Assembly: GCA_001724265.1 (NCBI GenBank)
Contig: MEDY01000170.1
Span: 1-57,196 of the forward strand
Origin: Rhizaria sp. SCN 62-66
Taxonomy: Eukaryota
Length of the DNA: 57,196 bases
Direction: 5' to 3'
Numbering within the stretch: position 1 is the stretch's first letter; every line of letters begins with the position of its first letter. A program made the translations under genes and the position numbers. Below are positions 220 to 39,520 of the stretch, in pieces. The notes beneath the pieces were generated by a model. That model did no database searches, was not told the origin of the DNA, and saw nothing but the letters and a program-made list of their open reading frames with translations.

Positions 220-3200
220 TCAGAATAAGTTCTTACCGGCATTGACAGTCGCACCTGCAGAGCCCACGCTCACCTCGACCTCGGGCGTGTCTTGCCCTTG
301 CTCCCCCCACCAGTTGTCAGTCCTGATGCGGTTGTCATTGCCTCGCTCTTTCTGTTGTTGCGCGTGAGACTGTGGCTGCTGCTACTGCTGTTGCTCATGT
401 TGTTGTCCAGCCGCGCGCCTGCGCCGCTGCCGCTCGTTCTCGCGCGCCAGCTTGACAAGCCGCAGCGCCAGCGGCGCGCGCACCCGCTCGTCCACCACGG
501 CCGCGGCCACCATGAAGCCCCCGCCGCAGCCGTGATGTTGCTGTCCACCGTGCTCCTGCGCAAGATCCAGCTCCAGCTCGAGCTCGAGCTCCAGCTCAAG
601 AGCGGCCTCGGCGACTTCCGCGGCCAGCTCGCGCTCGCGCAGCTGCAGCAGCGGGGACGCAGCTAGCCCGTCGGTGCCCTGTCGCTGCTCCTGCTGATTC
701 TGCGTTGGTAACTCTGATGGCAGAGGCAGCTGCTCGACTCTCTGGGAATGCAACTGCGAATGAAACTTGTGGCACGGCAGCGACAGAGGGGCAAGCGGGC
801 GCGACAGCACATCTTGCAGGTGGTAAGACAACGCCAGCGCATGCGCCACGTGGTCCCCCGTCTCTTCACTATGAGCCCCCGCCTCAGCGCTTTGCCTCAC
901 AGTGCGCAGCAGCGGGGCGGCGGCGCGCTGTTGCGCCGCGAGCGCGAGCCCCGCGGTGACAGCGCGGAGGCGGCGCGTGAGATCCAGCAGCTCACGGTCA
1001 CTGCGGACCACTGCGCACAGCGGGTCGCTGCTGCTGTCACCACTGTCGTCACTGGCTTCGTCACCAGCATCAGGGTCATCATCGTCATCATCACTGTCGA
1101 CCTCGTCGGTGACGTCGTTGCCGAGATCGCCACCGGACTCGCCGTCAGCGACGTTGGCGGCCTTCGGAACAGCGTTCCTGACCGCGGTGTCATGCGTGTA
1201 CGTGCGTCCCACTGCGCGCGCACCCTGCACCGCGGTGTAGCGGCGCGTGCGCGCGTGGCGCTCGCCCTCGCTCTGCGGCTCGCTCTCGCCTTCAGCCAAG
1301 GACTGCGCCGCCGCGTCGCTCTGCGCTACACTGCTGTCCGCCGCGCCACTCTTACGCACGTCAGCGGAGGGGCGTGCAGGGACCGTGGGAGCGTCGTCAT
1401 CGAGCACCGCGTTGTCGGTGCCGCCGTGCGCCACCGGCCGATACGACCGCGCACCAGCGCCCTTGCCCGCGCGCCCCTGATTGGAGCCGCCGCTGCAGCT
1501 TGCGGCGTCGTGGTGAGTCACAGCGGCAAAGCGGGTGGCACGCGGGAGACACGCGAGCAGGCGCGCCGCGGTAGCGGCCGATAGAGAGGATAACACAACC
1601 GGGGCATTCGCCGCAGCGTTTGCAGTCCGCACAGAGGCATTAGCAACAACAGTATCTGTCGCAGTTGCAGGAGGTACAGTGCTGTCGCTTGAATCGTAGT
1701 CAGGAGCAACCGACTCAATCTTAGCCCCAGTCTCTTCACCTGCTGTCACAGCGTCTGTGCGTGTCTCCGCCTCAGACTCCGTGTCGCTCTCCGCAAAAGT
1801 CGCCATGGCACCCGAGGTGACTCGAGCGCCGACGCCATCAGCAGCGGATGAGACCGCATTATAGCTCAGGACAACGGGACGCGAAGCCCGGCCGTCGGTG
1901 TTGACACTGACTGCCACTTGCACAGGCACAGGCGCAGGCGCAGGGGTGTTGCTTTGATTGTTGCTGATGTTGCTGCCGGCGCCGGCGCTGCCGCCACCAA
2001 GCAGGATGAGCACCGTGGCGACGGCCGCGTACCCCCACAGCACGGGCTGCGAGTTGGACCGGCTCACCGCGTAGCGCACGTCGGCCGCCACGGCCAGCAG
2101 CAGCCATAGACACCAGCGCAGGAAGCCTGTCAGCGTGGCTGCTGCAGACCGCGCCGCCGCCGACAGCGACAGCGGCGCGCCGCCGCCAAAGCCGTCGCCC
2201 GCGCCGTCCCGATCCCCGGCGCCCAGGCCGTAGGCGTCGCCGTGGCCGTGGCCACCGCCGCTGGGGCCGGCGTGGAGGCCGCCGGGCGCGGCGTCGGCGA
2301 AGGGGCCGTGCCCGTACCCGGCGCTCTAGCTGTGGCTGCGGCCGTGGCCGTAGGTGCCGGCGTGCGCGTACGGGCCGTAGGGGTTCACTGGCGCGGGTGG
2401 CGTGACCAGGTCCAGGAACCAGGCCGCGAGCCCGCCGCCCACGCCGACGGCGGGGGAGCTGGCGACTCCACGCTCCGGCGGGCTGACGCCGTCGACGGCA
2501 CCGCCGGCGCCCGCCGCTGCGGCTGGGGCTGCTGCGGCAGCGGCGCGGCGGCGGCGCTGCGCGCGGCGCGCCTTGCGGCTTGTGATCTGCGCCACGATCC
2601 CCTCAGTCTCGCTGTCGAAGCCCTCCGCCGTAGCGCTGCTAGGCTTGCGCTGGCGCGGGCTGCCGCTGTCAGAGCCAGCGTTGCTGCTGTGAATGTTGTT
2701 ATTTCTGTCCGGGGTGGAGCCGTTGGCGTCGTTGCCGCCCCCATAGTAGAGAGGCGGGGGTAAGTGACGGCGGCGCATGGCGCGCAATAACGTCGCCTCC
2801 TCGTCCTGTTCAGCTGCAGTGGCAGAGTGACTGTGGGAGCTGGCGCGACTGCGAGCGCGGCCGCCATCGAGGTCTAAGCCATCGTCGTCGTAGTCGTCGT
2901 CGTCCTCGTCGTATTCTCTAAAATCGCTGTCATCTCCGTCGTCCTCGTCGTCCTCATCTTCGTCGTCAAGGTCGTCGAGACCATAGGCGGCCCTGCTGCT
3001 GGGTCCAGCGTTGCTGTTGCTAGGACTTCTTTGAACCGCTCCAGCACTCGCGCCCGCGCCACGCAGCCACCGGTCTTGCGCCCCGTTGTGCATGTTGCCG
3101 CCCAAGCCAAGATGCTGTTGCTGCTGCTGTTGCGCGTGTTGATGCGCCAACGCAGGCTGCACCCCTTGCGCGTGCGCAGCGTGCGTAGCGTGCGGGGAGT

Positions 3201-4689
3201 GCGTCGACTGCGGCGCGTGCTGCGCAGAAAGCGTGCCCTGCGCCTGCGCCTGTGTGTGTGCGGAGGGCGTGAGCGGGCGCGGCGGCACGGCCACGTCTGT
3301 GAACCACTCCCAGCACTCGTTCAGCGGCCCCGCCCAGCCCGCGGGCGCGACAGAGACGGCGCGCGGCATCGGCATGCGCAGCGCCAGCAGCCCCTCGAGC
3401 GCCTGCCCGCCGCGCGCGCGCAGCTCAGAGAGCTTATCACTCAGCGCCAACGACGCGGCCGCCGCCGCGGCGGACGCGGAGGCAGCGGCGGCGGCGGCGG
3501 CGGCGGACGCGGACGTCAGCGAGGGGCCGCCGACGCCGGTCGCGCTCGGGCTCGGCGTCGCAGCTGTCGCGCCGCCGTCCGTTCTCGCCGCAGCGCTGTC
3601 ACCCGCCGCCACCGCTGCTGCTGCTGCCGCTGCCGCTGCGGCGAGCGCGGCAGTGGTGGTGTGCGGCGGCGGCGAGGGCAGCATCAGCGCCAGCTGCTGC
3701 TGCGTGTAGCTCACCCACGGCGACTGGAGCGGCCGCGGGGCGGGAGCACACTGTAGCTGCAACTGTGGCCGCGTGTGGCTGCCGCAGTACAGGGGCAGCG
3801 CGGCGGCGAGCGCGCGTTGTCGCCGTTGTTCACGGTCGCTCCGGCGCTCAAGCGCGCTCTTGCGCTGACTGTTCCTGCTGTTGCTGACATTGCTGTTGAT
3901 GCTGTCAGTGTTGCGCTCAAGATCGCAGTCATTGTTGCTCAGGGTGACCGTATCAGTGATGTTTCGAGCAGTGGCCGGGGACTGCGACGCTCCCGTTGCC
4001 GTCGCCAGTACCGTCGCATGTAATGCTGCTGTTCTAGCGGCAGTCGCAGTTGCGGCAGTCGTGATCGAGCTTGCACGGCCACTGCGCGTCCCGGTCCCAG
4101 GCCCAGTCCCAGCCGCGTTCCCGCTCGCAGCCGCAGCCGCAGTTGTAGTCGCAGTCGGGGTCAGGGTTTTTACATTCGTGTTCGAAGTTGTGCTTGTGTT
4201 GGAAGGAGATTGTGTAGAGGCGCTTGACGTCGCCTGCTGCTGCTGTTGCTGTTGCTGTTGCAGCGGCGGCGGCGGTGGCGGGCCGAGCGTGGGCAGCAAC
4301 GGCCCCGAGAGGGCGAAAGCGATCTGGCTTAGCCCGCAGCTCTCATGACCACCAGCGGCGGCCCCCGCAGCAGAGTCGGGGCCGGAGACCGCCGCGCCAA
4401 AGCCGTGCGCGGCGCCGTGCGGGAGGCCCAACCCCGCGCCCGCGGCGGCAAGAACGGGGTTGTTGGAGTGCGCCGCGGAGTGCGCCGAGTGCTGCTGCAG
4501 CAGCGGCTGCAGCGGGCGCGGAGGCGAGGCGGCCGCTGCGGAGGCCTGCTGGGCCGCCGCCGAGGACACGCCGCCAAAGGGGAAGGACGGAAGGAAGCTG
4601 AGCGGGGAGGAGGCAGCAGCAGCAGCCTCGTCGCGGCGCTTTTGCGCCTGCTTCGAGTGCTTTTGCAGCTGCTTCCAATTGCGCTTCAT
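220..4689 (-). CDS. Uncharacterised ~1489-aa low-complexity protein with a probable central transmembrane hairpin; two in-frame TAG codons (2326-2328, 382-384) read as sense
   Basis: ORF-track entries 2326..5052 and 382..2091 share one frame and are separated only by TAG. Reading through gives MKRNWKQLQK...GHGRSHS[TAG]SAGYGHG...GFLRWCLWLLLAVAADVRYAVSRSNSQPVLWGYAAVATVLILLGGG...QQHEQQQ[TAG]QQPQSHAQQQ...NAGKNLF-TGA(220-222), where composition turns AT-rich. Start taken at ATG 4687-4689, at the edge of the GC-rich block. No family recognised. Confidence 0.7.
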
Positions 4690-5222
4690 GTGCCACCAAG
4701 CAGGAACAGACGCCTGCGGAAGTGGGGAGAGCAACTGAGAAGAAAAAAGAAAGGTACTACGTCGCGTGCAAAGAGTATAACAAGGCATGTCAGCAGGTAT
4801 ACGTGAGAGTGGCTTTGAGCACGAGCTTGGACAACAGAAAATGAGAAAGGAGCAGAACTGCCTGTCGCTGGCCACATGGTTTGCACCTTTGGACAGCACG
4901 TTATATAAACATTTGTAGGAAAAAATAAAATGATGTTCATAAATAAGCGCCATATCAAAGCTAGAATTCAAACGTGAACATGCACTGACGTTGTATATGT
5001 GGTGTATGAGACTGTCTTTGCTACTTTGTCTCGGAGTTGATTTCGAGCCCACGGTCGCTGACGGCGATGGGTCAAATCATCTTCGCCGCAATTGAATTCA
5101 CGCATGATCGAACCTTGCAGTTACATTTTAACATGTTTGAATAGCTTTAATGAACTGATTTCTCAAATATATTTCACTCACATTTTATCAACTTCTCTCC
5201 TTTTCCCACAGGCGCACCCCCG

Positions 5223-8200
5223 ATGAAGCGCGGTCCCTCGAAGCAAGTGGGCACCACCGCTCCGTCGGCCGATCGCCGCCCCTCTCGGCGCACCGACGCT
5301 CTCAAGCACAAGAAGGAGCGTTCTTCCGGCGCGAGCGGTCCTCTCACCGTCGCTGATCTGCTTGAAGGTACGTTTGCTCTTTATCTTCCCTGTCACCCAA
5401 CGAATTCCCGTCCCCAACGGTTCTTTCGCTCCCACCATCCTCCAACTCACTTTTCCTCCTGCTCACCCCCGCATTCTTTACTGGTCCTTTCTGCAGACGA
5501 GCTGACCCCTGTGGCGAACCGTTTCTGGGCGCCCGGCCGCACCGCGCAGGCTCCGTTCGATCCCGCTCTGATCGAGGCGCTGTACTACGGCGAGCTTATC
5601 GAGTGCAACGTCGGCGCCCCGCGCGTCGTCATGCTCGAACTCTCGTCGTACCTGGAGAACTACCTCTGGCGCCACTTCGACCCCGCCACGGCTTCGTACG
5701 CGCACGTCATGTCGATCATTGTGCTCATCAACGAGAAGTTCCGCGAGAACCTGCTGCAGATCTGGTCCTCGCTGCGCGCCGCGCGCGACGACGCCACGCT
5801 CGCCGCCTTCCTCCAGTGCGTCCTAACGCTCCGCGCGCGCTTCAGCGCCGCCGCCGCCGCCGCCGCCGCCGGCAGCAGCAGCGCCAGCAGTGAGGGCGCC
5901 GCGGCGCCGCTGCCCCCGCGCAACCCAACGCTGCGGCCGATGGAGCGTGCACAGTACCTGCTCTTCGCCACGCACGCCTTCTCCTCGCTCGAGGACCCCG
6001 TGGTGCGCGGCGCCGTGCTGGGCTCCGTCTCGCTGCCGCTGTGGCGCGCGCTCTCGGCGCCCGCGCGCGAGGAGCAGCTGGCGCTCTTCTCGGAGCTGGC
6101 GCCGCAGTGGCGCAAGCTGTCTTCGGCCAAGCACGCCACCAAGCACGTCACCGAGACCGTGTTCCTCCCCGCGCTGCTCGAGGACCTCGCCGCAGTCGCC
6201 GCGCTGCTCGGCGGCAACACGCCCGCCGCCGCCGCCGCTGCCACTGCCACAGCCGCTATGACCGACGCGACCGAGGCTGAGGCTGCGGCTGAGGCTGCGG
6301 CTGAGGCTGAGCCGTCGCCGCTGCTGCTGGGCTACACCAAGCTCCGCGCCGCCACAGCCAACGACACCGCGATCGCGAGCAGCAGCAACAGCGCGAGCGC
6401 ACAGGCCGGTGAGGAGAAGGACGGCGACGGCGCCGACGCCGAGGACTCCGAGGCCGCCGTGAGCTCCGCGGCCGCCGCGGCTGCCGTGGCTGCCGTGGCC
6501 TCATCGCGCGCGCTGGCCCGTTCCCTCGCAGTCGGCAGCGCCGGCGGCCGCGCGGGCGCCTTGGTGTCCGCCGCGGCTGCCGCCGCCACGGCGCTGCCCG
6601 TGTGGGCTCCCGCCGTCGCCACCGTCGAGCGCATCACCTTCCCCGTATCCAGCAGCAGCAGCAGTTCGAGCGCGGACGGCGCCAAGGGCGGCAAGGGCGG
6701 CAAGAGCGGCGGCGGTAAGACGCGCACGCTGGTGCTGTCCCGCGCGCACGACTTCTACGCCGCGCGCTCGCCCGTCGCGGCGGCCGCGCACGATGCTGGA
6801 GTCCTCACGCTTGCGCTGGAGCGTGGCCTGGAGCTGCTGTTGGATCTGGTCTCGCAGCTGCCCACGCGCCGCTTCGTGCGGCCGCTGCTGCTCGACGCTC
6901 ACGCCGTCGTCGTGCTCCGCCTCTGCCCCTTTGTGCGCGGGACGGGTGCCGCGCTAGCGGTCGCACTGACGCCAGGGCAGCAGCAGCAGCTCGCCGCCTC
7001 CGCTGGCGCTGGCGCTGGCGCTGGCGCTGTGTCCGCGAAGGGCGACGCTGACGCTGGGTCTGGCTCCGATGACGACGCCAGCAGTAGCAGCAGCGGCAGC
7101 GACAGTGACAGTAGCAGCAGCAGCAGCAATGACAGCGATGATAACGACAACGACGACGGAAATAAGGGCAAGAGTGCTAGCAAGTCCAAGAAGTCCGCTG
7201 CGTCCGCGACCGCGACTGCGGCTGCCAAGCCCGCGCGCGCCCGCCGCGCCGCGCGCCCGCCGGCGCACGTGTCGCCATCGGCATTCTCGCCCGCGCGCCA
7301 CCCCAGCTCGCCGCGACTGGCGCTGCGCCTACTGGCCTCGCTCGACTTTTACCTGGCCTTCCCGGTCGACGACAAGTCCGGCGCCGCGCTCTCCGACGCC
7401 GCCGCCGACGCCGACTGCCTCGCGCGCTTCCACCGGCTCCAGGCCGCGGCGTTCCGCGCCTTCCCGGCCGCGCTGGAGCCGCTCGCGCTGGCGACCGCGC
7501 GCGACGTCCTCGTCCCCGGCCGCGAGGCGGCGCTGCGCGACCTGCTCGCCGCGCTCTCGGACGGCGACCTGGCCGAGCTGGCGCGCGCCGTAGGCGTGCG
7601 GCCCGACTTCGGGCTGCTGCACCCACTCGCCGCCAGTGCGGGCGCGTTCCCCGCGCGCGCGCGCCGGGCGCTGCTGCTGGCCGCGCTCGTCGCGCACCAC
7701 GCGCCGCGCCCGCGGCCCTCCGCCGTGGCCGCCGCGCTGCCGCTGTACCCGACCGAGGCCGAGCTCTGGGACGCGCACCTGGTCCCCGAGGAAGGCTACG
7801 CGGGCGCGGCGCCGCTGGCGCTGCCGAAGCTGTCTCTGCAGTTCCTCACGCTGTTCGACTACCTGTGGCGCAACTTCCACCTGTACCGCCAGGAGAGCGC
7901 GGGACAGGTCCGCGCAGAGTTGCTGACCGTCGTCGACCGCATGCTGCCCACGCGTCTGCCCCCCGCCTCGCACGTGCAGTCCAACACCAGCATCAGCAGC
8001 AGCAGCAGTAGCAGTAATGCGGGCAGCAGCGTCAACTTCGCCGTCGCACTGCGGGCTGCCGCCGCGTACAACAACTCCGCGATGTCCGCCTCCAACACCG
8101 ATACCAACAACAACAGCGGCGGCGGCGAGAGCAACGTGTCCGCGGCCCGCGCCAACGCGCGCGCGGACGCCGCGGCGTATTCTGCAGCGCTGCCCGCGAC

Positions 8201-11200
8201 GGCGGACGCGGCGCCGACGGTCTTCACGGGCCGGTCGCCGCTGGCGCTGCCGCTGCGCGGGTTCCGCATCGCGGGCGTGCGCAAGCCCGCGCTGGGCGCC
8301 GCGGTCCCCGAGTCTGTCCGCGCCGAGGTGACCGTGGACCTGGCCGCGCTGCCGCCGCCCGTGCGCGCCGAGTGGGAGGCGCTGGGCGAGCACTCGGTCT
8401 TCTTCCTGCTCGCCGTGCGCGCGCCTGCCCCCGAGCCGGTCGACGAGGGCGGCGTCGCGGGGAACGGCGACGTCGCCGTGCTTGGTGCGCCGAGCAGCGC
8501 TGCGGGCGCTGTGGTGGCGGCTGCTTCGAGCGCCGGTGCCAGTGGCGGCAGCCGCAAGCGCGCGCATGAGTCGTCGTCGTCGAATGCAAGTGACGCGACT
8601 TCTGCTGCTTCCGCTGATAATGTCACCGACAGTAGTGAGTCTGCTGTGGCTGGTCGTAAGACCCGCCCTGCTCCGGGTAACACCAACGGCGCGGGCGCTG
8701 CCGCGTCTGACAAGAAGGGCTACGGTAACAACACCAACAACAACAAGGGCCCGCGCAAGGGCCGCAAGAGCAACTTGCCCCGCGGCGCGCCGACTTCTGC
8801 TGCCGCAGCTGCCGCGCTGGGCATCGCCTACGTGCGCGGCTGCGAGGTGGTCACGGTGCTGGACGAGGCAGGCACGCAGGTGGGTTCACGCGCCGACGAC
8901 GGCCGCCCGCGTCCCGCCGTGGGCTCGCTGCGCACGTTTGTGGTGGCTCTGGACCCCGCGCAGTACCAGGCCGACTCGGACCGCCTCGCCGCTGGGCTCC
9001 CGGCCGCGGCCGCGGGCGCTGCGACGGCCGCGGCTGCCGTGGGCGGCGCGGGCGTGCTGCACGCGCTGCCCGCCACTGTGGGACTGCCAACGGGCGACGG
9101 CAGCGCGGTCGCCGTCGCCGCCGCCGCCGCGGGGCTTGTTCCTCTGGCCGCCGGCGGCGCGGGGCCGTCCGGGGCTGCGGGCGAGGGCGAGTGCGAGGAC
9201 GTCTACACGACGTTCAACCTTCTGGTGCGGCGGCGGCCCGAGGAGGGCAACTTCCGCGCCGTGCTGGGCTCGCTGCAGGACCTGCTGCGTGAACAGCAGC
9301 AGCAGGCCGCCGCGCTTGCCGCGGGCGCCACGGCCACCACCGTCCCGCGCTGGCTCCACGACGTCTTCCTCGGCTACGGCGACCCCGGGGCGGCGAGCTA
9401 CTCCGCGCTCGCGCAGTCCAGCTCTGACTCGGAGCACAAGGAACCCTTTGCTGTGAAATTCGCCGACACATTTCTCTCGGAGGAGCACCTCAAGGACTCG
9501 TTCCTCACCCCGGTCGCATACACGCACAACGCCAGCTCTCCCGCAAGCGCGAGCGCGAGTGATGCGCAGACCGCGGAGGGCGAGGTAGGCCGGCCTGTTG
9601 CGCTGTCGTTCCCCGCCGACGTGCTGAGCGCGCGCCCCGAGCTTTCTGCGCTGGCGGCGCTGCTGCGGCGCAACCTGCGCAAGTATTCGCGCGCCTCGGC
9701 CTGGGGCGGCGTGCCCGAGGCCGAGTGGGCCGCCGCCACGGGCGAACCGCTCTGCGCCGCCAACGGTGAGGAGGACAAGGGCAAGGACGAGAGCAAGGAC
9801 GCGTCGCGCGGCGTGATCAGCGCGCGCCCGTACGCGTGGATCCAGGCGCGGGACACAGTGCCGCGCCGCAACACCGTGCGCTTCACGCCGACGCAGGTCG
9901 AGGCCATTAAGTCTGGCGTCCAGCGCGGCCTGACCCTGATTGTCGGTCCCCCCGGCACGGGCAAGACGGATACGGCGGTGCAGATCCTGTCGGAGCTGTT
10001 CCATAACCACCCGCAGCAGCGCATCCTGCTCGTGACGCACTCGAACCACGCGCTCAATGACCTCTTCGCGAAGCTCGCGCAGCGCGACGTCGACGAGCGC
10101 TACCTTCTGCGTCTCGGCCACGGCCACACGCAGCTGGGGCTCGACAAGGACTACTCCAAGTTCGGCCGCGTCAACCACATGCTGCAGCGCCGCCTCGCGC
10201 TGCTCGACACCGTCGGCCGCCTCGCGCTCGCGCTGGGCGCTGTGGCGGACCCCGCCGCGGCGGCCGCGTACACGTGCGAGACGGCCGGGCTCTTTTACGC
10301 GCACCACGTGCTGCGCCGCTGGCGGGTCTTCGCCGCTGCGCTCGCCGCCGCGGAGAAGGCTGCGGGCGGCGCCGCGCTCACCGCCGCGCTCGCGGCCGAC
10401 GCGGCCGACGACGCCGACGCCGACTCGGCCGCCGCCGCCGCCGCCGCCGCGGGCGGGGCGCTCGGCGGCTCCGCGGCCGCGACCGTGGCCGCCGGCGCCG
10501 CGAAGCTAGCCGAGGACGCCGTCGTGCGCGCCTGCGAACGCCCCGTCTCTGGCTCCGACTTGACTGCGGGGACCGTGGGCGCGCTGCTGACGGGCTCGGC
10601 GGCGCACACGCTGCTCACGACCGAGTTCCCCTTCGCCGCCTTCTTCCCCAATCTTTTCTTCAGCGCCGCGAACAGTGGTGACGAGAGTGGAGACAAGACT
10701 GCTGCTGCGGCGGCGAATAACGACAGCTACGCCGCGCACAAGCGCGCCGCGCTGTCTGCGTTCGAGTCGCTGCGGCTTACTTTCTTGCACCTGGAGGAGA
10801 CGCGTCCGTTCGAGATCCTGCGCTCGTTCCGCGACCGCGGCGACTTCCTGCTGAGTCAGCACGCGCGCGTGATCGCGCTGACATGCACGCACGCCGCGAT
10901 CCGCCGCCGCGAGTTCCTTGCGCTGGGGCTGCGCTACGACTCGATCGTGGTCGAGGAAGCGGCGCAGGTGCTCGATGTCGAGACGCTCATCCCGCTGCTG
11001 CTGCAGCGCCCCGACGCGGACCTGGGCAACCGGCTGCAGCGCGTGGTGCTGCTGGGCGACCACCACCAGCTGCCGCCTATCGTGCAGAACCAGGCCTTCC
11101 AGCGCTACTCGCGCTTCGACCAGTCGCTCTTCACACGCCTCGTGCGCCTGGGCGTGCCCGCCGTGCAGCTCAACGCGCAGGGCCGCATGCGCCCCGAACT

Positions 11201-12602
11201 CGCTGCGCTGTGGGCCTGGCGCTACCCGGGGCTCGTGTCGCTGCCGCTCGCGCTCGGCGACCAGCGCTTCGCGCTCGGCAACTGCGGGCTGGCCCACGAG
11301 ACGCAACTCATCGACGTCGGGGCCGAGTCGGGCGCGGCCGAGGCGACGCCGCAGCCGCACTTTTTCCAGAACCTCGCTGAAGCCGAGTACGTGGTGCACA
11401 TGTACATGTACCTGCGTCTCATGGGCCACCCCGCGTCGTCCATCTCGCTGCTGACGACCTACAATGGCCAGAAGGCGCTGCTCAACGACGTGGTGGCCGC
11501 GCGCTGCGCTGCGCACCCGCTCTACGGCGCGCCCGCGCACATCGCGACGGTGGACGAGTTCCAGGGCCAGCAGAACGACTTCGTGCTGCTCTCGCTCGTG
11601 CGCACGCGCGCCGTGGGCCACATCCGCGACATCCGCCGCCTCGTCGTCGCCGTGTCGCGCGCGCGCCTCGGGCTCTACGTCTTTGCGCACGCGCCGCTGT
11701 TCCGCAACTGCCTCGAGTTCGCGCCCGTGATGCGCTCGTGGGCCGCCAAGCCCGCGCAGCTGCAGGTGTGCCCGCAGGAGCGCAACGCCTACGGCTGGAC
11801 GCAGCGGCCCTCGTGGACGCACCGCGCCGAGCCCTTCAAGGGCATTGCGCAGTTGCCGCCGCGCGCGCCTGCCGGCTCTACCTCCGCCTCAGTCTCCGCT
11901 GAGGCCGCCTCTGCCCCTTCCACTGCTGCTGCCGATAAGAAGGCGGCTAGCGGCGGTCGCGGCGGGGGTCGCGGCGGGCGCGGCGGCCGGGGCGGAGGCC
12001 GCGGCGGGCGCGGCGGCCGCAGCAATGGCCGCGACGCGATGCCTGCCTCGCTGGAGGAATACGAGGCGCTGATTGTGGCCAACGGCGACGCCGTCGTCGC
12101 AGCTATGTCCAAGGCCCAGCAGCAGCAGCAACAGCAGGAGCAGCAGGAGCAGGAGAGCTCCAGCGCTGACTCTGCCGCTGCCGGCGCCGCCGCTAAGGAG
12201 GGCGAGGCCGGCTCTGCCATGGACGACGCCGACAACAGCGGCGGCAGCAGCAGCAAGAGCGAGAGCAAGTCCGAGAGCGACAAGTCCGACAAGTCAGCCG
12301 CTAACGACAGCTCTGCGAGCGATGTTGACGTGGCGAACCCGCAGGTGTTCACGATCGCGCACGTGACGCACTTTGCAAGCGTGGTGGCCGCGATCGAAGG
12401 CATCGCGATGGGCGAGTACGCGGCGCACGTGGCCTACTTCCGCGAGCAGGAGCGGGCCGCAAGCGAGGCGACGGCGCGCGCGCAGTGGGAGGTTCAGCGC
12501 CGGCGCAGCGAGGAGGAGGAGCTGGTGCGCGAGGACGCCGCGCGCGAGCGCAGGACCGAGATGCTTATGGAGGAGGAGCCCGTGGACATGCAGCAGCGCT
12601 GA
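5223..12602 (+). CDS. AQR: Aquarius / IBP160 intron-binding spliceosomal SF1 RNA helicase (~2416 aa after splicing; exons 5223-5367, 5497-12602)
   Basis: Family motifs [83 protein letters not shown], Walker A [58 protein letters not shown]. C-terminal RGG box. Stop TGA. Confidence 0.96.
   Translation: [2459 protein letters not shown]
5368..5496 (+). other. Spliceosomal intron in AQR (129 nt)
   Basis: GAAG|GTACGT donor, pyrimidine-rich body, CTTTCTGCAG acceptor. Removal gives [14 protein letters not shown], like the AQR N-terminus. Length is a multiple of 3, so it is hidden in the ORF track. Confidence 0.85.
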
Positions 12603-13954: not shown

Positions 13955-14505
13955 GTCAGCAAGCAAGCGCTGTTTACCACACAGCCACATGTTACTGTTA
14001 TAGCGGGTGTCGCCCGAGGGGCTCGACGTGAGTGCTCGAAGAAACTTAACCATATCCTTTGTTTGTTTTTAATACATCATATTTTGTTTTCTGTTCTTCC
14101 TTGCCTCTGACCTTGGCCGTCATGTCGCTGGTTTTCAGGTTTTAGGCAACCAAAGAGTCAACAAGTGTCTGCTTGGTAACGAAGAAGACATTTGACTTTG
14201 CACAACAAGAGCTCTGAATTCTGATCGTCATTGTCAACTTTGACAGTTTGTATACATTTAATATGCAGATTGCCTTATGTCATTTAAATAATGTTTCACT
14301 TGAAGGCGTATACCTTTAAGGAATTCGTTTTTGAATCGCCTCGTGCTGTCCGAGTTCCTGCATCTCTCACAACTCTCTTTTTCACACTGCTCAACGTCGT
14401 TGGATTCTATGCAGAGCTAGGGTTACCGCCTAGCTGTTTAATACTACCACAGGAATTAGTTTGCATTGGCTTTGGACATAAGCTTGCTAGTCTTATTGCA
14501 GAAAA

Positions 14506-26500: not shown

Positions 26501-29500
26501 GGCTGTCCGGAACATCGTCCTCACTTACTTCAACCAACAGCACACTCACAACGACCACGACGACGACGCTCACCTCAGTGGCCACGCCACTCACAGGCAC
26601 TTCCGCCTCGACCGCGCTGTCAATTTCAGCGGACACACTCACGGGCACGCTTTCCGGCACGCAAGACCACGGTGCCCGCGCGCTGAGCCGCTTCTACGCC
26701 TCCGCGGGGCCTTCGCTGGGCCGCCGGCCTTCGCGCGCCTTGCTCGCCGAGTCCGGGCGCGAGGGCGTGCTTGCTCACACGCGCGCAGCGGAGGCGCAGC
26801 AGAGCCACGGCCAGGGCCGCGCGCGCGGACACTCGCACAGCCGCAGCATCTCCAGCGACGGTCTCAGCGGCGGGGCTGACGGCGCTAGCGTCAGTGCACA
26901 GTCCCCGCGCTCGCGCTCACACGCGCGGTCGCATTCGCACTCGCACGTGCCGTCGCCGCTCACCTCGCCCACCGCCGCCTCTGGCTCTGTTGGCGACCGC
27001 TCGCGCCGCCGCGGCCGCTCATCCCGCTCCCACGCCACCTCCGCGGCCGCCGACGGCGACGGCGAGGCCGACGTGGGCGTGGAGCGGCGGCGCCGACGCG
27101 CGGGCCGCGCGCGGCGCTCGCGCGGACACACCGCGGCCGGCGCTCGCGGCGACGGCGACAGAGACGGCACGCCGTCCGCGGGCGGGGACACGTCCCGCGG
27201 CCGCAACAGGGGCGTCGGCAACGGCAGCGGCGACGACGCCGACGGCACGACGTCGCGTGGCCCGCGGCTCGACTTCCTGTACCCCGTGGTGCCGTGGCCC
27301 GGCCCGCTGTCGCGCGAGGCGGCGCGGCACGGCCCGCTTCTGCCGCTGCTGCCTCGGCTGTGCGAGGCCGGCAGCGACGAGGAGTCCGCCGCCGTGGCTG
27401 CTGCGGCGACTGCGACGCCGACTGCGGCGGCCGCCGGCGTGAGCGGCGCGGCTGCGGAGTTCGAGGCCCCCGTGCGGCAGCGCGCACAAGAAGCCCCCGC
27501 CAACTCGATGCTCACGGTGGCCACCAGCGACGCGTTTACCACCTCCCCCGCCGCCGCCGTCAGGGCAATCGCGCTGCTGCCGGCCGCGGCCGCGGCGCGC
27601 GGCGCGGCGCACGCGACCGGCGTGGTGCCTGGCGTCTCGCTGGGCGTGCTTGCGGCGCCCGTCGACCGCTGGCCCATGCCGCAGGCCTCGCGGACCGCGG
27701 ACGCGGCGACCGCGGCGACCGACGGGCCGCGGGGCGCGCCGCTGCAGGCGCGCTGGGGCGCCGAGGCGCTTGCCGCGGGCGCCCCGGCATTGACGCCCGC
27801 GGCCGCCGCCGCCGCGGGGGCGGACCCGCTGCGCTCGCCCGCCGCAGATCTGCCGACGGGCGCGGGCGCCGTCGTCGTGGTTGCTGCCGCGGTCGAGGCG
27901 TCTGCGACGGCGAGGGAGCAGCGCGCTGCTGTAGTGATGGCGCAGACGGCGCGCGAGCCTGCACCCGCGATGCCGCCGCCGGTCGCCGTCGTCTGTAACA
28001 GCGGCGCGGCCCGCGGCGCGCGCTCGAACACCGGCGCCGGCCACATCGGCGATGTTGCCGGTCTTTCGCTCGCCCTCGCGCCCGTCTCCAGCACGTCTTC
28101 GGCGTCGCCTGCCGCGATTGGCGGCGCGAGCGTGACTGTGGGGGCGCTCCAGCGCAGCCACCGGCCCGGCGCGCTGCCCACCTCGGGCACCGCGGGGCCC
28201 GGCGCGGCGGCGGCGACGGCGCTGGCGACCGCGGCCGCCGTCGCTGCCGCCGCAGGGCATATCCGTACCGGCGCTGGCGCGAGCGCTGCCGCTGCCGACG
28301 CACTGCCCCACAACAGCCATTCTGCTGGACGCGGTAATAGTCACGGATACGGCCGCCAGGGACAGCAGAGCGAGGGCGGGCTGGCCGCGAGCGATCCGCT
28401 GTGGCTGCTGCGGCCTGAGGCTGAGGTGACGGCCGAGGCGGAGCGCAGGCTGCGGCGCGCGCTGGCGTGGCAAGACTTCTGCCGTCCCGGCGAAGCCGCC
28501 GCCAACGCGTCCGCTGCCGCTGCCGCTGCGGCTTCGCTGGCGGCAACCCCTGCGGCCGCAATGACTGTAGTTGCGACGAAGCGCACTACGCCCGTCGCAG
28601 CTGCTGCTGCTGCGGATGCGGCACAGCAGCTGCCGGGCACCGTGCCCCTGAGCAGCGCCGAGCGGGGCGCCGAGATCGAGGTGCACGGCGGCGGCCCCCC
28701 GTCGCCGCCGTCGTCGCGCACGTCCCCGTCCTCCGCGTCTGCCGCAGCGGCGGCAGCGGCCGCACTCTCACCCGCCGCGGGGTCCTATGAAGCCACCCAG
28801 CACGCGAACTCAGGCCATAGTACCACGGGCGCTGGCGTTGACGGGGCCCGTCGCCGGGTCACGCAGGTCACGCACGCGCCCTTCTCCGCCACGAGCGCAA
28901 CCGCCAGCGCCAGCGCCGCTGTTATTACGGCCACGGGCGGCCGCGCTGCGCCGCGCACCGCGCCCGCGCGCTCCGGGCTATCGGCCTTCACACCAGCGAC
29001 CCACATCGGCGGCGCTGGCAACGGAGACGCCGTGGGCGCTGTAGCGAGCCCTGTTGGCGAGGCTGAGGAGGCCGACGCGGCGGCGGCGGCGGCGATCACG
29101 GCGGCCGCGCAACGGCCCATGACCGCGCAGCACCGGCGCGCGGTGGCCGTGGCCGCGGCGGCACTCGGCACTGGCACACCGGCGCACGCGCACTTACTGT
29201 CGCAGTCGCAATCGCTCTCGTACGATTACCCATCAACCAGCGCAGGTGTCACTACTGTGCCTCATGCTGTCGCTGTCAGATCTGCTGCGAGTGGGCCGCA
29301 TGTGACGCTGCGGCCGCGTCCTCCCAGCACGCCGCCCCCGCCGCAGACGCAGACACTGGCGCCGACACAATCTCAGTCGCATCTGCCGTTGCAGTTTGAG
29401 CTCCAGGCTCAGCAGGCGCAGCGCACCGCAACGGGCGCTGCGGGGCGCGCTGCCTTGGCGCGGCCGCGCACGGCCAGCACGGGCAGTCTAGCGGGCGCGA

Positions 29501-29757
29501 GCGCTGGCGATGCCGCTAGCGCCGTGTCTGCCACGGCGGCCGCAGTGGTCGCGGCAGTGACGCGCAGCGCATCGGTCACTGCCGCGGCCTCCGCTCCTGT
29601 TCCTGCTCCTGCTCCTGCTCCCGCTCCGACAGTGCGTCAGTCCGCCGCTGCGACGCAGTCTGCAAGCGACAGCGCCGTGGCTGCCGAGGCGGCGGAGGCT
29701 GAGGAGAAAGCGAGGCTGCTAGCCGAGCTTGGAAGGCTGATTCCTGGCTTTGATTAA
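14506..29757 (+). CDS. Giant (~5083 aa) predicted intrinsically disordered Ala/Ser/Gly-rich protein; one in-frame TAG at 15031-15033
   Basis: ORF 14506..15033 (ATG start) and ORF 15196..29757 (GTG start in the track) are in the same frame with only a TAG between them. About 14.7 kb is stop-free after the TAG. Ends LIPGFD-TAA at the switch to AT-rich DNA. No globular domain recognised. Confidence 0.75.
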
Positions 29758-30074
29758 CTGCGGCTCTGGGAAGAACATAATATCTTATATTATCTGTAAC
29801 ATTGACTCTTTGTCATCAGAGACATCATTTACATAGGAAGTTCGTTATATACGCAATCTAAAAGAAAATATATTAGTATATTGTAACAAAGAACTTGAGA
29901 TTGAATAAAATCTACTTTGTATTTTTATCATTATCGCTTTCCGCTTGATCAAATACCCCAAAAGAAACTTAGTGGGTACAAAATGAGTTCTACCAGGCCC
30001 CAGAGTTCTATATCTCGCCAAACAGGCGTTGTCATCGCATATGCATGCATGTGTTCGCATGGGTGTCGCCGCGC

Positions 30075-31120: not shown

Positions 31121-31841
31121 ATGTCTTCCAAGGACGGCAACAAGAGTCCCCGCAAGAATGCGAACTCGTCCGTCCGCCGCAACGCCAAAGGTGGCGTGTT
31201 TGTTAACCCCAACGAGCTTAAGCTGGTCCGTCCCCTCATCTCTCATCCCTTGTCATCCCTTTCTTCGGCATGCTTTATCGCCTTACGACAACGCTCACTC
31301 ACCTCCTCTCCTCTCTTTTGCTTTCACCCGTCTCATCTCTTCCGCTCTTAGGCCTTTGAGTTCCTTGATACAGGCAAGAAGGGCTACATTACGGCACAGG
31401 ACCTGCGCGAGAAGCTCGGCATCTTCTACAAGAACCTGACCTCGCGCGACTACAAGCTCCTCATGCAGGGCCGCGTACGTATCTCGCGCTCGCTGCGCTA
31501 TACTGTCGCCATAATGTTGCATGTCTCTAAATTAACTCACGTTTCTGTGTTTATTAGCTTATCTACTTATGTGTAATCCCGCTAATTACTTCTATATCGC
31601 GCGAACCTTCTCCATATATTGCCCTCGGATCAAACTCTCATGTTGTCATTCGAACAACCCCCCGCTCACACACACCCCCACGCCCTCCCACGCACACACT
31701 TTGCTTTCCACGCTTCCTCCCTCCGCCGCTCAGACTGAGCTGACGGAGCAGGACCTCTACGCGCTGCTCGCGCATAACGAGTTGACAGACTTCGATCCCG
31801 TCAAGGAAGCCTTTAAGGTCTACGCCCCCACCTCGGGCAAT

Positions 31842-31874
<33 letters not shown>

Positions 31875-32632: not shown

Positions 32633-35600
32633 TCACTGTTTCTCGCTCTTCCGCCCCCTAGTCGATCCCCTCGTGACTGGAGCCGCGGCATGCGCAGCTC
32701 TCTCCAGCGTCGCCGCGTCCGCGCTCCACCCATGCTCCCAGCGCGTCCACACGCGCCGTTCGCGGGGCCAGCGCTTGAACCCGGCCGGCGCGCGCGCGCC
32801 CCACGCAACGCCCGAGGCCAGCAGCCGCGTTAGCACGGCGTGCTCCGCCAGCCGCGCGCCGTACACGCGTGCGCCGGGCGCCGCCAGGGCCGTGCAGCGC
32901 GCCAGCAGCGCAGAGGCGGCGGCGGCGGCCGCGGGCGACGGCGCGGGCCGGCCCACCCTGCGCACAACAAGGCTCGAGTTCGCGCTAGCGGCCGCACCAG
33001 AGCTAGAGTCGACACCGATCGCAAGGCTGGAGTCTGAAGCCGCCGACTCAGTGCTTGCGGCGCCGTTCCCGTCGCTACGGGTGGAGGACGTGGAGCTGGG
33101 GCGGGCGCGGATGCGGAGGCAGGGCACGCCGGCGACGGCCTGGGCTTGCGACAGCAGCGCTGCGGGCAGCAGCAGCGAGGGCAATGCGGCGCCGGACTCG
33201 TGCGGCTGCAAGTGCGACGACCACCGCATTGGGGCCCGCAAAAGCGAGTGGGGCTGCGTGAGTGCGCCGTAAGGCTGCGACCGGGACTGGGACTGCGAGT
33301 CGAAGCGCGAGAGCGACAACGCGTGCGGGGGTGGCGAGGCAAACACGGTGGGCGACGACGACAGCGACAGCACTGGCGCAAAAGCAGGAGAGCCGTCGAC
33401 GGTGTCAGCGTCAGCTCCAGCGTTACCGGCCGTCGTCGTAGGCGCAATCCCGCGTGCACTGGCGCAGTCGGCGCTCGCGCTATTGAGATCATCGCGTGCG
33501 GTGCACAGCGCGGCGACAAACGCACCCCACTCCGCATAAGCGCCACGCCTGCGACGGTGGGCAGCGACACTGTTGCTATTGCGGCCATGAGCACGGTGAT
33601 CGGCATCGTTGTCGCGCATATCGTCGCCGATATCGTTGTTCTCGGCACCGCAGTCGCTGTCATCGCCACTGTCACCACTGCCGTCTTCGTCTTCTTCCCC
33701 GTTGAAGGAGACATACGGCAGCCCCAGCTGCGTGTCGTCGGTTGCCAGGAGCACCAGCCCCAGCGCGCGCGCCGCCCGCACGTCTCTGGGCCCGAGCCCC
33801 AGCCCCAGCCGCGCCACGGCCGCGGCCGCCGCAGTCGCCGCAGTCGCCGCATCCGCGCCCGCAGCGGCGTCAGCGGCGGAGAGCTCGAACGCGGAGGCCA
33901 CGGCTCGCGCGAGCTCGGCGCCGCGGCCGTGAAGCGTGTGTGGCAGCGGCAGCGCGCGCGCGGGCCGCGGCGGCGGCGCCAGCGCGGGCGGCGGCGGTGA
34001 CCGCAGGCCGAGACCCGCGGCCGCTGTCGGGCCCGCCCCCGCGGCGCTGGACGGCGAGAGCGCGAAGGAGTGCGACTGGGGGGAGGCGGCGCGGGGCACG
34101 GCTAGCGAGAGCGCGAGCGCGGGCGCTGCGGGTGACTGGCGGCCGCTGTGCTGCTGATGTTGCTGGTGCTGGTGCTGGACGTGGCTGGCGTTGCTGTTGC
34201 TGTTGACGTTGCTGCTGTTGTTGTTCGCGTGCATGTGTGGCGGAGGCGAACGGAGAGCAAAAGCCGAGTTTGGGGAGCCGATGCTGGTCCTGCTGTTGCC
34301 ATTGTATGCGCTGACACCCGTCTGCAACTGATACTGAGGCGGCGCTTGCGACTGCTATTGGGACATCGGCTGAGACCGCATGGCTGCTTGTGCCTGCAGC
34401 TGCTGCGCGCGCGCCGCGAATGGCGAAAGCATCGGCCGGGTCGCGCCGTGCGCGCCGTGCCTCGCTGCCGTCGCCGTCGCCGTCGCAGAGACGTGGGCGA
34501 GAGAGGACGCCGACGCAGAGAGCGGGAGCGCGGAGGACGACGTCGACGACGCAGCGACGGCGGCTAACATCAGCGCCGCAGCGCTGCGGCCCGTCGTCGT
34601 CGACGGCCGGGCCGGCACTTGCACTGGTGCCGCAGTCGCCCACTTCTGACTCTGGTTGTAGCTATGATTTATCTGTTGTTGATGCTGCGGCAAAACATGT
34701 CCATGCTTTTCCCGTTGATTTTGATGCGCATGCTGCGATAGTATTGTCTGACTCTGATGCTGATGGTGCTGATACAATGTCTCTTGCTGCACTTGTTGCT
34801 GCTGCTGCTGCAAGATGAGCTGTTGCTGCTGATGATGATGCTTTTGCTCCTGCTCTTGCTGTTGCTGTTGCCTTTGAGCCACCTGCGCCATGTGGTGCAG
34901 CTGCACGCTCTGCGGGAGACCGAGGGACTGCCGCAGCCGCTGCTGCCGCTCCTCCTCCAGCCGCTCCAGCTGCTCCGGCGTCGGCGGCGCCGCTGCGTTG
35001 TTGCGCGCTTTGGGGTCCGAGGCCTGCTGCGGGGAGCGCATGCTTGAGCGTCTTGTGCGCATATTCGTCGGGGATTGCGTTTTTGAATAAATGATTGATG
35101 ATACTGGCGATGTTGCCGTTACTGTGGATGCTATCGCGGGCGATACTGCTGATTCCTCGTGTGGACCAGAGGTGGTGCGAGCGTCACGAGTCTCGCTAAC
35201 ACCGTCGTACTTGGTGGAAATGTCATCATCGTGCACAACAGCACTGCTGCAAACCGAGCCATCGTTGCTGCGCACACCAGCAACAGCGCAACTCGATAGC
35301 GCTGACTTAGCGTTTTCTGGGTTTGCGTCAAGCGAAAGAGCGTCTGAACGACCTGTAGCAGGCTCAGTATCACGATTCACGCTCTCAACTCTTGCCTCCT
35401 CAGTCGCTGCACTGCTTTTAATGCCGCTACTGTCGTTTGGCACAGCCGCTGATTCAGTCGCCTCCGTGAGCAGAGGCACAAGTGGCGCAGCCCGCCTCGG
35501 ACTCGCATAAACGCCGCTATGACTGGAATTCGCAGCTGAAGTCGCAGCATGCGCAGTCGCAGCATGCGCAGTCGCAGCATGCGCAGTCGCAGCATGCGCA

Positions 35601-38600
35601 GTCGCGGCATGCGCAGTCGCAGGAGTCGCAGTCGCTGCAGGCTCAGCAGCAGTCACAGTCAAAGCATGCGCATGTACATTTGCAGCCGCATTCGCAGTCG
35701 CAGATTGTCCCTGCCGCCACCTCGCAGGCGCGGGTGACCGTGCGGGAGCAGCCGCGGCCTTCGGCTTCGCAGCAGCTGCAGCAGCAACAGGCTTGGCCTT
35801 GGCCGGAGTTCCGTACGCGTCGCCGTCATCGTCGAAAGGGAGGTTGTACAGCTCTGCGCGCGCCTGCTCCAGCATCGCCGCGCGCTCCGCAGCAGACATC
35901 TGCACCGCCTCGGCGGCAGTCGCGCGGCGGCCGCGGACGGCGAACTGCGGCTGCGGCGGCGGCGGCAGCGGCGGCAGCGGCAGCGGCGGCGGCGGCAGCG
36001 GCGGCCCAGGCTGAGGGCGCCGCGGCTGCTCCGCGCACTGAGCGCCGGGGGACGCAAACGCACTGCTGCCTCCGCTCCCAGCAGCAGCAGCAGCGATTGT
36101 GAAGGCGGGCGAGACGGGGCGGCGGCGGGCCGCGGCGCGCGCGCGCGCGGGCGTGTGGCTCTTGGCAGCGGCGCGCGCGAGCGGCGGCAGCGGCAGCGCG
36201 CGCGGGAGCAGCTGCGCGAGCAGCGCGCGCGGCGGCAGCCGGCTCGCCGCGAGCGCGGGCGCGGTGAGGCGCAGGAACGCGCGCGCGCCGGTCTCTGCGC
36301 ACGGCGCCGCCGTCACAAACACCGCTGCGTGAAGCAACGGGGGCCGCTGTAGCGCGGCCGCGTCGCTGCCGCCGCTGCTAATGGTGTGTGATTGAGACAC
36401 AAGCAGGCGGCGCTGTGCGCGCGGTGACAGGCCGAGCGAGCGCGCCGCGGCCGCCAGCGCGCGCGCGAGTGCGCGGCGTAGCGGGCGCGACTCCAACAGC
36501 GCCGACCGCGACCGCGACGACGACGGCGACTGCGAGCGTGAGCACTGTAATGCTGGGAAGAACAGAGGCACGTCAACGAAACCTCCTGAGGCAGACGCGG
36601 CTGCACCTCCGCCCCCACTGTCAGTCAGCGACTGCGCCAACGGCGGCGGCAGGAGCAGCAGCCTCAACGCGCGCGCAGGAGCCACAACGCTGCCAACCTG
36701 CGCACCCAGCTTCGTCGAGCCATCGGTGCCGTCGTGAGACATGTGTGTGCGGGCGTGTGCGTGTGCGCACGAGCGTATGCGTGCGCGTGTAAGCGCGAGA
36801 GAGCGCGGGCGCGCGGCGCGGTGCATGCGCGTGAGGGGGTGCACGTCCACCAGCGCCACGGCGCTGCGCCACCGCAAGTCGTCGCTCTCCGCCGCCGCGC
36901 CGGCATTGGCCGCCGCGCCCGCGGCAGTGCCGCCAGCGCCAGAGGCAACGCTTGCAGCTGCGGCGGTGGGCAGCGCCGCCGCCGTGACGGCGAGCACGCG
37001 GCGCGCGGCGCGGGGGCCCGCGCGTGTGAAGACGGGCTGCGCGTTGAAGCCCAGCACGCAGCGCACCAGCGCCGCCGCCAGCGGCAGCGCGCGCAACGTG
37101 CGAGGCTGCGTCTCCTGCAAACGGCGCTCCTCAGGCGCGGCCAGCTGATGCTGCTGCTGCGGATGTTGCTGTGTGAGAGCGGTGGTATTGGCATCAAAAG
37201 GGGACGCGCCGCTATGCGTCTGCGTAAGCTGCGAAAACTGAAGTGCAGACGCAGACGGAGATGAAGACGCGGTACTAGTGGCGACATGCGTGGTGGAGAT
37301 GAAGGGCGGCGGCTGTGGCAGCCCGGCGCGCGCGGCCTCTCGCGCGATGAGTGCGGTGGCCAGCGGCAGCGCCAGGGTCGCGAGCAGCGCGTGCGACGGC
37401 GGCACCAGCGGCCACAGCACACAGCGACACGCGTCTCCAGCGCTGCGGTCAGTGCTGCGGCCTTTACTGTAGTTGTTGTTGTTACTGTTGCTGCCACCGC
37501 TTTGGTTGCTGCTTTTGCTCTTGATGTTATGAGCGCTCGTCGAGTCGCCGTCGGCGTCGTTCTAGCTGTCGCTGCCGTAATCGCAATCGCTGTTAGTCTC
37601 GTCATCACTGTCGGTGAGCGCGCTCTGATCAACAGCATCGCAGTCGCCACTAGCTCCTGACGCTGCGGCAGCCGCGGCGGCCGCGACGGCTGCAGTGGCC
37701 GCGGTGGCCGCCGCGTCGGCTGTAAGCGCCGCGGTAAGCGCCCAAAGCGGGCAGCCGCGCGGGGCCACGCCCGCGGCGCACGCAGCCTCCGTCTCGGTTT
37801 GCGCCGCGCCCGAATCAACCTCGGCGGCGGCGCCGGAGTCGCCGGCGGCCGCGGTCAGCGCTGGTAAGAGCGAGGGCGGGGGCAGGGACGCGACGCCGTC
37901 AGGCAGCAGCGCGTCGCGCAGGTAGCCCGCCAGCACAGCCACGGCCGTCGCCAGACCGACCTGCGAGCGGGCGCCGTTCGAGCTGCTCCCATTCGCATCC
38001 GCGCTTGCGCTCGCACCAGCATTAGCGCTCGTAGAGGCGGAGGCAGCAGCTGGCGGCGAGAGCATGGGGGAGCTGGCGCGCGAACCGACACCGCCGACGC
38101 CGACGCCGACGCAGCTGCCGCCGCCGGGCGGCTGTAGCGGCCACGTCGCCTGCGACTGAGAGGCGCACTCCGCCTGCGAGTCCTGCTGCTGCTGCGACAG
38201 CGCGGGCGAGTGCGACGGGGACTGTAGGGGAGACTCTGACCCAGTGGCGTTGCTCGTGGCGGCGCCGTTGGAGCCGTTGGACTGCAGGTCGGCGAGCGCC
38301 TGAGACAGGTGCGCAGACCGCGCGGCCAACGGTAGATAGTCGCAGCCGCTGGCCGCGGCGGCAACCTGCAGACACAGCAGCAGTGGAGAGACGCCCCACA
38401 GCGCCGCGTGCGGGTTGCGCCGGCACAGGCACAGGCCGTCGCGAAGGGGCGGGTGCCCGTGCGCAGCAGCAGGGGCGTTAGCGGCGATGTGACTGTGGGT
38501 CGATGCCACGCGCACGCACCAGTCGCGCGGCACATCGCGCGCGGTCTCTGTGTCTACCTCGGTATCCGTGGACTCTAATGTGATCGTCGTGTGACGATTA

Positions 38601-39520
38601 TTGTTGTTGATGTTGTTCGGGTTTGCGCTCAGAAACGCCTCCGACTCCGCACTCGCGCTCGCAGTCGCATTTGCGCCGGGCGCGAGCAGCGGCGTGAGCA
38701 GCGGCGCCAGCAGCGGCGCGCGGTGCAAGTCCGCCGTGTCGTACATGATTGCGGTGCCCGCCGCCAGCGAGGCCCTGGTGAGCAGACGCCGGCAGCCCAC
38801 CACAAGCAAGTCGGAGTCCTCGGCCAGGACCGCCGTGACGGCGCCCGCGCGCGCCAGCCGCGCCAGCTGCCCGTCGGCCTCGAAGGGCGCAACCAGCACG
38901 GGCAGCCCCAACGCGCGCAGGGCGAGCTGCCACGCGCGCGCCAGAGTCGGCGTCACGGGCTGGCTCTGCAGCAGCAGGCGCGCCACGGCCGCGCAGTCGC
39001 CCGCGCTCGGCGCAGCCACGCGCGCGCAACTCGCTGCCGAGGCGCCCGGCGCGCTTGCAGCCGCGCTGCCACTACTGTTATTGCTGTTGCTGTTGCTGTT
39101 GCCGTTGTTGTTGCTGTTTTGAGTTGGATAGAGCAGCGCGGCGGTCTGCTTGTGCGCAGCGGCGTCGCGAGCGGCGCGGAGACGCGCGCGCTCGGCGTCC
39201 GTGGCGGCCTTGAGCGGCTGGTCGGCGCCGTCAAACACAAACAGCGGGCGCACGCCGTAGCGGTCGCGCAGCAGCAGCGCGTCGCGCGTGCACAGGTCCA
39301 CGCAGCTCGCGGCGGCCGCGGCGGCCACGGCAGCGGTCAGCGCGGCCGCCGTCGCGGGCAGCGGCGACGGCAGCAGCGAGGACGCGTCGAGCGCAACCGA
39401 GTGTAGCGCGCGGTGCAGCCACGCGTAGGCGTCAACGGCGACAGTGTGACCGCGGAAGGAGGTCAGAGAGACTGGGCGCGCGACTTCGCGCAGCGCGCGC
39501 AGCAGGCCGGTAACGCCCAT
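32633..39520 (-). CDS. EXO1: Exonuclease 1 (XPG/RAD2 family) with long low-complexity C-terminal region, ~2295 aa; two in-frame TAG codons (37562-37564, 34355-34357)
   Basis: XPG-N: MGVTGLL...VAVDAYAWLHRA...LFVFDG. XPG-I: VLVAPFEADGQLARL...AEDSDLLVVGC. H3TH start SGCDYL. Track ORFs 37562..39520, 34355..37420 and 32633..34327 share one frame and are joined only by TAGs; final stop TGA at 32633-32635. Nuclease identity is strong; the full extent depends on TAG read-through. Confidence 0.85.
35541..35615. repeat. 15-bp tandem repeat (GTCGCAGCATGCGCA)x5, coding (TAHAA repeat in EXO1)
   Basis: Four exact copies plus one with a single substitution; unit length is a multiple of 3. Confidence 0.9.

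Follow-up and report, generated by a model that had tools for sequence, protein, structure and literature searches.

The 57,196-base contig MEDY01000170.1, analysed over its whole length and referred to below as the window, carries three long protein-coding genes in which the codon TAG interrupts the reading frame and the same frame then continues: a low-complexity gene (gene A), a giant open reading frame (gene D), and a gene for an EXO1-like nuclease. Coding frame, codon bias and guanine-plus-cytosine (GC) content run straight through the TAGs, and TAG ends none of the 11 genes. With moderate confidence, and judging from these features of the sequence, we favour the reading that UAG has been reassigned to a sense codon in this organism; that UAG is translated in some manner, with leaky or ambiguous decoding counted in, is likely. 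Under reassignment, a UAG-reading tRNA would insert an amino acid at UAG, most plausibly glutamine, only UGA and UAA would end translation, and gene A, gene D and the EXO1-like gene would each be expressed from a single long open reading frame (ORF) of about 1489, 5084 and 2295 codons, respectively. We infer from this pattern the insertion of an amino acid at the TAGs, its identity as glutamine, a tRNA with a CUA anticodon, and an altered eRF1.

The gene models comprise 16,638 codons, among which TAG occurs in frame five times and TAA and TGA not at all; a check for equally frequent in-frame TAA thus gave 0 TAA versus 5 TAG. The 11 gene ends consist of eight TGA and three TAA codons. These counts agree exactly with the initial annotation, which had reported some 16,600 codons free of internal TAA and TGA and the same tally of gene ends, and which had placed the five TAGs in frame at the positions and on the strands listed in Table 1, where all five were found (each is named below by its first coordinate). 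The glutamine-run contexts it had described for two of them, CAA CAG CAG TAG CAG CAG and CAA TAG CAG TCG CAA, are likewise present. As a separate observation, a serine codon (AGC or AGT) directly precedes three of the five TAGs (at 2329-2331, 15028-15030 and 37565-37567), and CAG or CAA precedes the remaining two.

Persistence of the coding signal was assessed by comparing all six reading frames, with scores from a codon table for which only the window's other genes served as training set. In all nine segments flanking the TAGs, among them the 53 codons that follow TAG 382 and the 176 that precede TAG 15031, the continuing frame ranks first of six, and a sliding-window scan agrees with the frame scoring. 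The next in-frame stop lies 53 to 4907 codons past the TAGs (Table 1), and 3-51 codons past eight accepted stops. Base composition changes in the same manner, as GC in the next 162 nucleotides is 0.58-0.83 at all five TAGs (0.83 past TAG 2326) and 0.30-0.46 past seven of the eight accepted stops, in keeping with the earlier statement that no AT-rich spacer follows the TAGs. Past TAG 382, GC holds at 0.56-0.69 up to the TGA at 220, and is 0.40 beyond it.

The companion claim, that no ATG lies close downstream of the TAGs, stands in part. After TAGs 37562 and 2326, database calls start at GTG codons, 68 and 83 codons on, whereas a genuine ATG is found 41 codons after TAG 34355. Gene callers that apply the standard or bacterial code split the genes of this organism at TAG; for instance, in a public protein collection the EXO1-like gene and gene A are present as separate fragments that begin at the GTG codons after 37562 and 2326, and at the ATG after 34355.

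One set of alternatives holds that the TAGs never reach the ribosome, either through errors of assembly or base-calling, through GC-rich introns that happen to be in frame, or through U-to-C editing of the transcript. Taken together, these are very improbable. Intron signals in the window are unusually uniform, consisting of a GTACG[TC] donor, a CTAAC-like branch site, an AG acceptor, and an AT-rich body of about 120-170 nucleotides. They are defined by three introns of the CorA-family gene (Table 1), and a fourth intron begins at 31475; all four introns read are AT-rich with the GTACG[TC] donor, their bodies set in exons of 70-85% GC. Within 600 nucleotides of TAGs 15031, 34355 and 37562 neither GTAYG nor GTRAG occurs, so that at these three sites no such donor is available. 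A GTAYG does lie 43 nucleotides upstream of TAG 2326, as an in-frame intron would require, but in coding-like sequence of 80% GC that is unlike the introns read here, and GC around all of the TAGs is 0.5-0.87. The TAGs are therefore not in introns of the organism's type.

With regard to errors, the TAGs are real DNA in more than one assembly, and not assembly slips. Logan contigs of run X1, the probable source run, were built with a different assembler and cover TAGs 34355 and 37562 with no differences at a depth of about 30, and a contig of runs X2 and X3, from a different sample, covers TAG 34355, also with no differences. The pieces of X2 and X3 do not differ from each other, and the two runs may represent a single data set; the pieces listed leave 37492-37632, and with it TAG 37562, uncovered, a gap that gives an artefact some room at this site although it is a hole in coverage and not a finding. 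No alternative letters are reported in any of the four runs. In a second ENA assembly, on a 50,387-base contig, the EXO1-like fragment also stops at TAG 34355, and its first codon is again the GTG below TAG 37562, and the protein fragments P0122 and P0245, which derive from two assemblies and span 34358-37357 on the minus strand, both terminate at TAG 34355. In addition, three contigs are on record for the fragment bounded by TAG 382.

Over 34358-37357 the two assemblies differ only in the lengths of in-frame repeats, with a Pro/Leu repeat shorter by 11 residues and an ATAHA repeat by 10, and P0122 and P0245 show no substitutions in 1000 residues. The differences in repeat length represent either real polymorphism or collapse of repeats in assembly.

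At the RNA level, polyA-RNA contigs of run X5 match gene D, in five stretches, and the EXO1-like gene with no differences, including the segment 37026-37356, which lies 3' of TAG 37562. Among the X5 pieces listed none crosses a TAG, a result that suits removal or editing of the TAGs in RNA.

A second possibility is that the code is standard and that the TAGs arose recently by nonsense mutation, CAG-to-TAG or similar, truncating dispensable low-complexity tails whose downstream ORFs have not yet decayed. We regard this as unlikely. Downstream of the TAGs there are no signs of decay typical of pseudogenes, in that no TAA, TGA or change of frame is found and the segments keep their coding-frame score, although a truncation that is very recent would be compatible with the missing signs. 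Nonsense mutation would nevertheless need fixed, very recent truncations in three of the 11 genes, and these would have left 573-4907 downstream codons without a frameshift, TAA or TGA and with codon bias fully kept. Long tails are open elsewhere as well, as evidenced by the 4907 codons in gene D and by 1896 codons without a stop in the gene for a PHD-finger protein; since other giant low-complexity ORFs are kept open, such tails are under selection and cannot decay freely. Assemblies with different repeat lengths carry the same TAG, the runs give no alternative letters, and the lack of TAG at all 11 gene ends is left unexplained.

Apart from the lack of an RNA contig across a TAG, several observations weigh against reassignment, and a number of them are in line with recent nonsense mutation. 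The initial annotation had argued from the fact that every break in frame is a TAG. The observation holds, but the argument is weaker than it looks, because TAG is the product of 66-70% of the single-base nonsense changes possible in the three genes, a share that derives from a tally with some mis-framed segments and is due to the abundance of CAG, TCG and GAG. Under random nonsense mutation, five TAGs out of five has P = 0.12-0.15, and the restriction to TAG is thus weak evidence. Likewise, for a normal TAG share of 15-25% among gene ends, the absence of TAG from all 11 has P = 0.04-0.17. All five TAGs lie in low-complexity, probably disordered regions without homologues, two of them in CAG/CAA runs, and there is no TAG among 5,204 codons of the conserved Aquarius, FCF1 and U1A genes and three modelled CorA exons. 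A stop at TAG 37562 leaves a complete EXO1 of normal size, with 652 residues and both nuclease domains. The spread of the TAGs over the three genes (2+2+1) would be expected where a first stop allows another to accumulate behind it, but is not significant (P = 0.23). Two of the sites are weak when taken alone, with TAG 382 only 53 codons from the TGA at 220, and TAG 15031 just 176 codons past the first ATG of gene D; the former could be a true gene end, and the latter a codon of the 5'-untranslated region.

To these can be added the rarity of the codon, the outcome of searches, and the usage of the closest relative. TAG occurs five times versus 549 CAG, or 0.9% of CAG+TAG. Comparable synonymous codons are over ten times more frequent (TTG is 12% of CTG+TTG, and AGG 17% of CGG+AGG), which points to a sense codon that is young or poorly decoded. 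When 1200 residues around TAG 34355 were compared with 1.84 billion representatives, the two matches were both the window's own fragments, and the search around TAG 2326 in gene A returned one match, again the window's own fragment. No tRNA with a CUA anticodon is encoded in the window, where tRNA-Met (CAT) is the only tRNA. Finally, the nearest relative for which DNA is at hand (contig L002, described below) uses TAG as the stop of two of its six complete long ORFs, Aquarius included, and has an internal TAG in none. At this 2/6 usage, however, the probability of finding no TAG among 11 gene ends is 0.012.

On balance, the earlier proposal of a sense UAG with UAA and UGA as stops, as in NCBI table 15, gains in part from the continuity of frame, the codon bias, the GC profile, the intron signals, the lack of TAG at 11 gene ends, and the recurrence of the TAGs in independent assemblies; its argument from exclusivity is weakened. 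If UAG is a sense codon, glutamine would be its likeliest meaning, and it is the context of the TAGs that favours this assignment. Glutamine-dense surroundings are found for two of the five TAGs, the corresponding shares being 2.6% for codons overall (P = 0.006) and 26% for glutamine codons. The TAGs thus sit where glutamine codons sit, which fits UAG as glutamine and CAG-to-TAG mutation equally well.

The arrangement of a stop codon followed by a long open frame is also suggestive of translational readthrough. Here, the code would be otherwise standard or ambiguous, with UAG still stopping some genes elsewhere, and near-cognate tRNA-Gln would read through the TAGs of the window, efficiently or in a context-dependent manner, to give long isoforms, an explanation that we consider improbable. 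The scarcity of TAG in frame, at 0.9% of CAG+TAG, is in its favour. In programmed readthrough of the tobacco mosaic virus type, the signal is UAG-CAR-YYA and a near-cognate glutamine or other tRNA decodes the stop, with the code unchanged; a C at position +4 favours readthrough. Two of the five TAGs are followed by CAG, and so have a C at +4. Across TAGs 382, 2326, 15031, 34355 and 37562, however, the next codons are CAG, AGC, GGT, CAG and AAC, so that TAG is followed by C, A, G, C and A with no common context, and the full CAR-YYA context is matched at none of the five sites. The 120 nucleotides downstream of the TAGs have folding z-scores of -1.82, -0.30, -2.84, +0.67 and -0.55 (in the same order), and share no common structure, although at site 15031 the segment folds better than all 200 shuffles, as a readthrough element might. 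Furthermore, TAG ends none of the 11 genes, and readthrough would span hundreds to thousands of codons, and would do so in three cellular genes unrelated to one another, unlike the viral type. To our knowledge, extensions of 573-4907 codons are unlike any known case of programmed readthrough.

Reassignment of UAG with UAA kept as a stop is known from few eukaryotic lineages, namely Iotanema, a sainouroid rhizarian and some phyllopharyngean ciliates. The pattern in the window is of the same kind as these UAG-only codes, but with UAG far rarer. In the fornicate Iotanema spirale, UAG encodes glutamine and UAA and UGA are stops (Panek et al. 2017, PMC5304391); as in the window, only UAG is found in frame, UAA and UGA terminate, and glutamine is likely. 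The UAGs of Iotanema align, in transcriptome data, with conserved glutamines across many orthologues (PMC5304391), whereas the window offers five TAGs, none alignable, that make up only 0.03% of codons. The Aquarius protein of the window clusters with Bigelowiella and metagenome proteins, in a tree that held no metamonad.

For the rhizarian exLh (Sainouroidea), the same source assigns UAG to leucine, with 384 in-frame UAGs in 71 genes, mostly at conserved leucine positions, and with gene ends formed by 56 UAA and 15 UGA (PMC5304391). The likeness to the window is that the in-frame stops are all UAG and that genes end only in UAA or UGA (three and eight here). In contrast to exLh, the window has five UAGs in 11 genes, two of them in glutamine runs, which does not suggest leucine.

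Ciliates are generally AT-rich. UAG-only reassignment in phyllopharyngean ciliates was found partly from metagenome-derived genomes, with genes for suppressor tRNAs present in two of three TARA genomes in which UAG is leucine, and with sense UAG widespread and UAA the preferred stop (2024, PMC11687900). By comparison, the window differs in that its long genes are GC-rich and contain introns, and TGA is the commonest stop. In full-text searches of the literature, no UAG-only code came up for a GC-rich or wastewater protist.

The position of the organism was assessed with Aquarius, for which the nearest proteins are P0002, at 63% identity in the helicase core, and P0003, at 59%, with the rest at about 45-56%. 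A quick maximum-likelihood tree, built from 38 sequences, joins the window to P0002 and P0003 (SH-aLRT 100). This group nests in a 13-row clade (100) whose sole named member is Bigelowiella natans; animals plus fungi, and green plants, fall outside that clade. Most protist groups are missing from the sampling, which includes no metamonad. A rhizarian affinity is possible, with the presence of Bigelowiella in the clade as its only basis. The best matches to FCF1 are 73% and 68% identical and include no named close relative. L002, a JGI metagenome contig of 217 kb and about 52% GC, is the DNA of the P0003 organism, and over positions 1-25700 it carries long intron-poor ORFs and an Aquarius of 1900 residues. 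It shows no synteny with the window and shares no gene with it except Aquarius, and therefore no TAG site can be aligned. The reassignment, if real, arose after the split from this still distant relative.

Other searches were uninformative as to placement or function. The Aquarius query had no match in the metagenome or genome contig collections, and the EXO1 N-terminus had none in the viral contig collection. A search of the ESM Atlas returned generic Aquarius and helicase clusters only, with no placement, and an AlphaFold2 model of the 533-residue fragment downstream of TAG 34355 is uninformative (mean predicted local distance difference test score 41, predicted template modelling score 0.26).

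A more specific, and tentative, possibility is that the window represents a young capture of UAG by glutamine, still at an early stage, in an unsampled lineage of GC-rich wastewater protists. In such a lineage, UAG would already be gone from gene ends (0 of 11), would account for about 0.9% of CAG+TAG, and would be confined to unconstrained, disordered regions, and the nearest sampled relative, with an Aquarius about 53-64% identical, would still terminate with UAG. If true, the window would represent a further independent origin of a UAG-only code, with very low usage of TAG, that bears on how stop codons get captured. It would also provide a natural intermediate for testing the codon-capture and ambiguous-intermediate models of stop-codon reassignment.

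Table 1. In-frame TAGs, the genes that carry them, and other features of the window
Feature	Position	Strand	Remarks
TAG, gene A	382..384	-	In Gln run; codon ~1436 of 1489 from ATG 4689; 53 codons to next in-frame stop
TAG, gene A	2326..2328	-	Codon ~788; context AGC TAG AGC; 647 same-frame open codons after
TAG, gene D	15031..15033	+	176 codons past first ATG (14503); 4907 open codons after
TAG, EXO1-like gene	34355..34357	-	Codon 1722 of 2295; context CAA TAG CAG; 573 open codons after
TAG, EXO1-like gene	37562..37564	-	Codon 653 of 2295; context AGC TAG AAC; next TAG after 1068 open codons
Gene A	220..4689	-	~1489 codons, low-complexity, no Pfam family; TGA 220-222 is the end if both TAGs are read through
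Gene D	14503..29757	+	5084-codon giant ORF from ATG 14503; no Pfam family; TAA end
EXO1-like gene	32633..39520	-	N-terminal XPG_N and XPG_I; 2295 codons; TGA end
Aquarius (intron-binding helicase)	5223..12602	+	2459 codons; TGA end; no in-frame stops
CorA-family gene	48825..56191	+	Four exons; TGA end
CorA-gene introns	52384-52549, 52719-52852, 54153-54274	+	Reading frame restored exactly; define splice signals
U1A/U2B''-like gene	47388-48137	-	Conserved
tRNA-Met (CAT)	56723-56795	-	In AT-rich spacer; sole tRNA gene of window

The gene content of the window is eukaryotic, and includes Aquarius, which served as the codon-usage reference as well as for placement, the EXO1-like nuclease, FCF1/UTP24, an EF-hand protein, the PHD-finger protein, a CorA-family transporter, and a U1A/U2B''-like protein with two RNA recognition motifs that was named by eye from its translation. 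GC is about 57-77% in 2-kb bins, with GC-rich exons and AT-rich spacers and introns. Runs of several studies, from bioreactors, wastewater and activated sludge, contain the same DNA, and the best explanation of the window is that it is nuclear DNA of an uncultured, intron-poor protist of roughly 70% GC from such communities.

Long low-complexity extensions are seen in two of the recognisable genes. That of the EXO1-like gene continues for about 1900 codons beyond the XPG_N/XPG_I N-terminus, whereas in the CorA-family gene the Mg2+ transporter domain forms the end of a gene of about 2300 codons, the remainder being a low-complexity N-terminal extension. Lastly, a spurious open frame of 266 codons (47330-48130) overlaps the U1A/U2B''-like gene in another phase, and spurious ORFs can thus be long at such a GC content.

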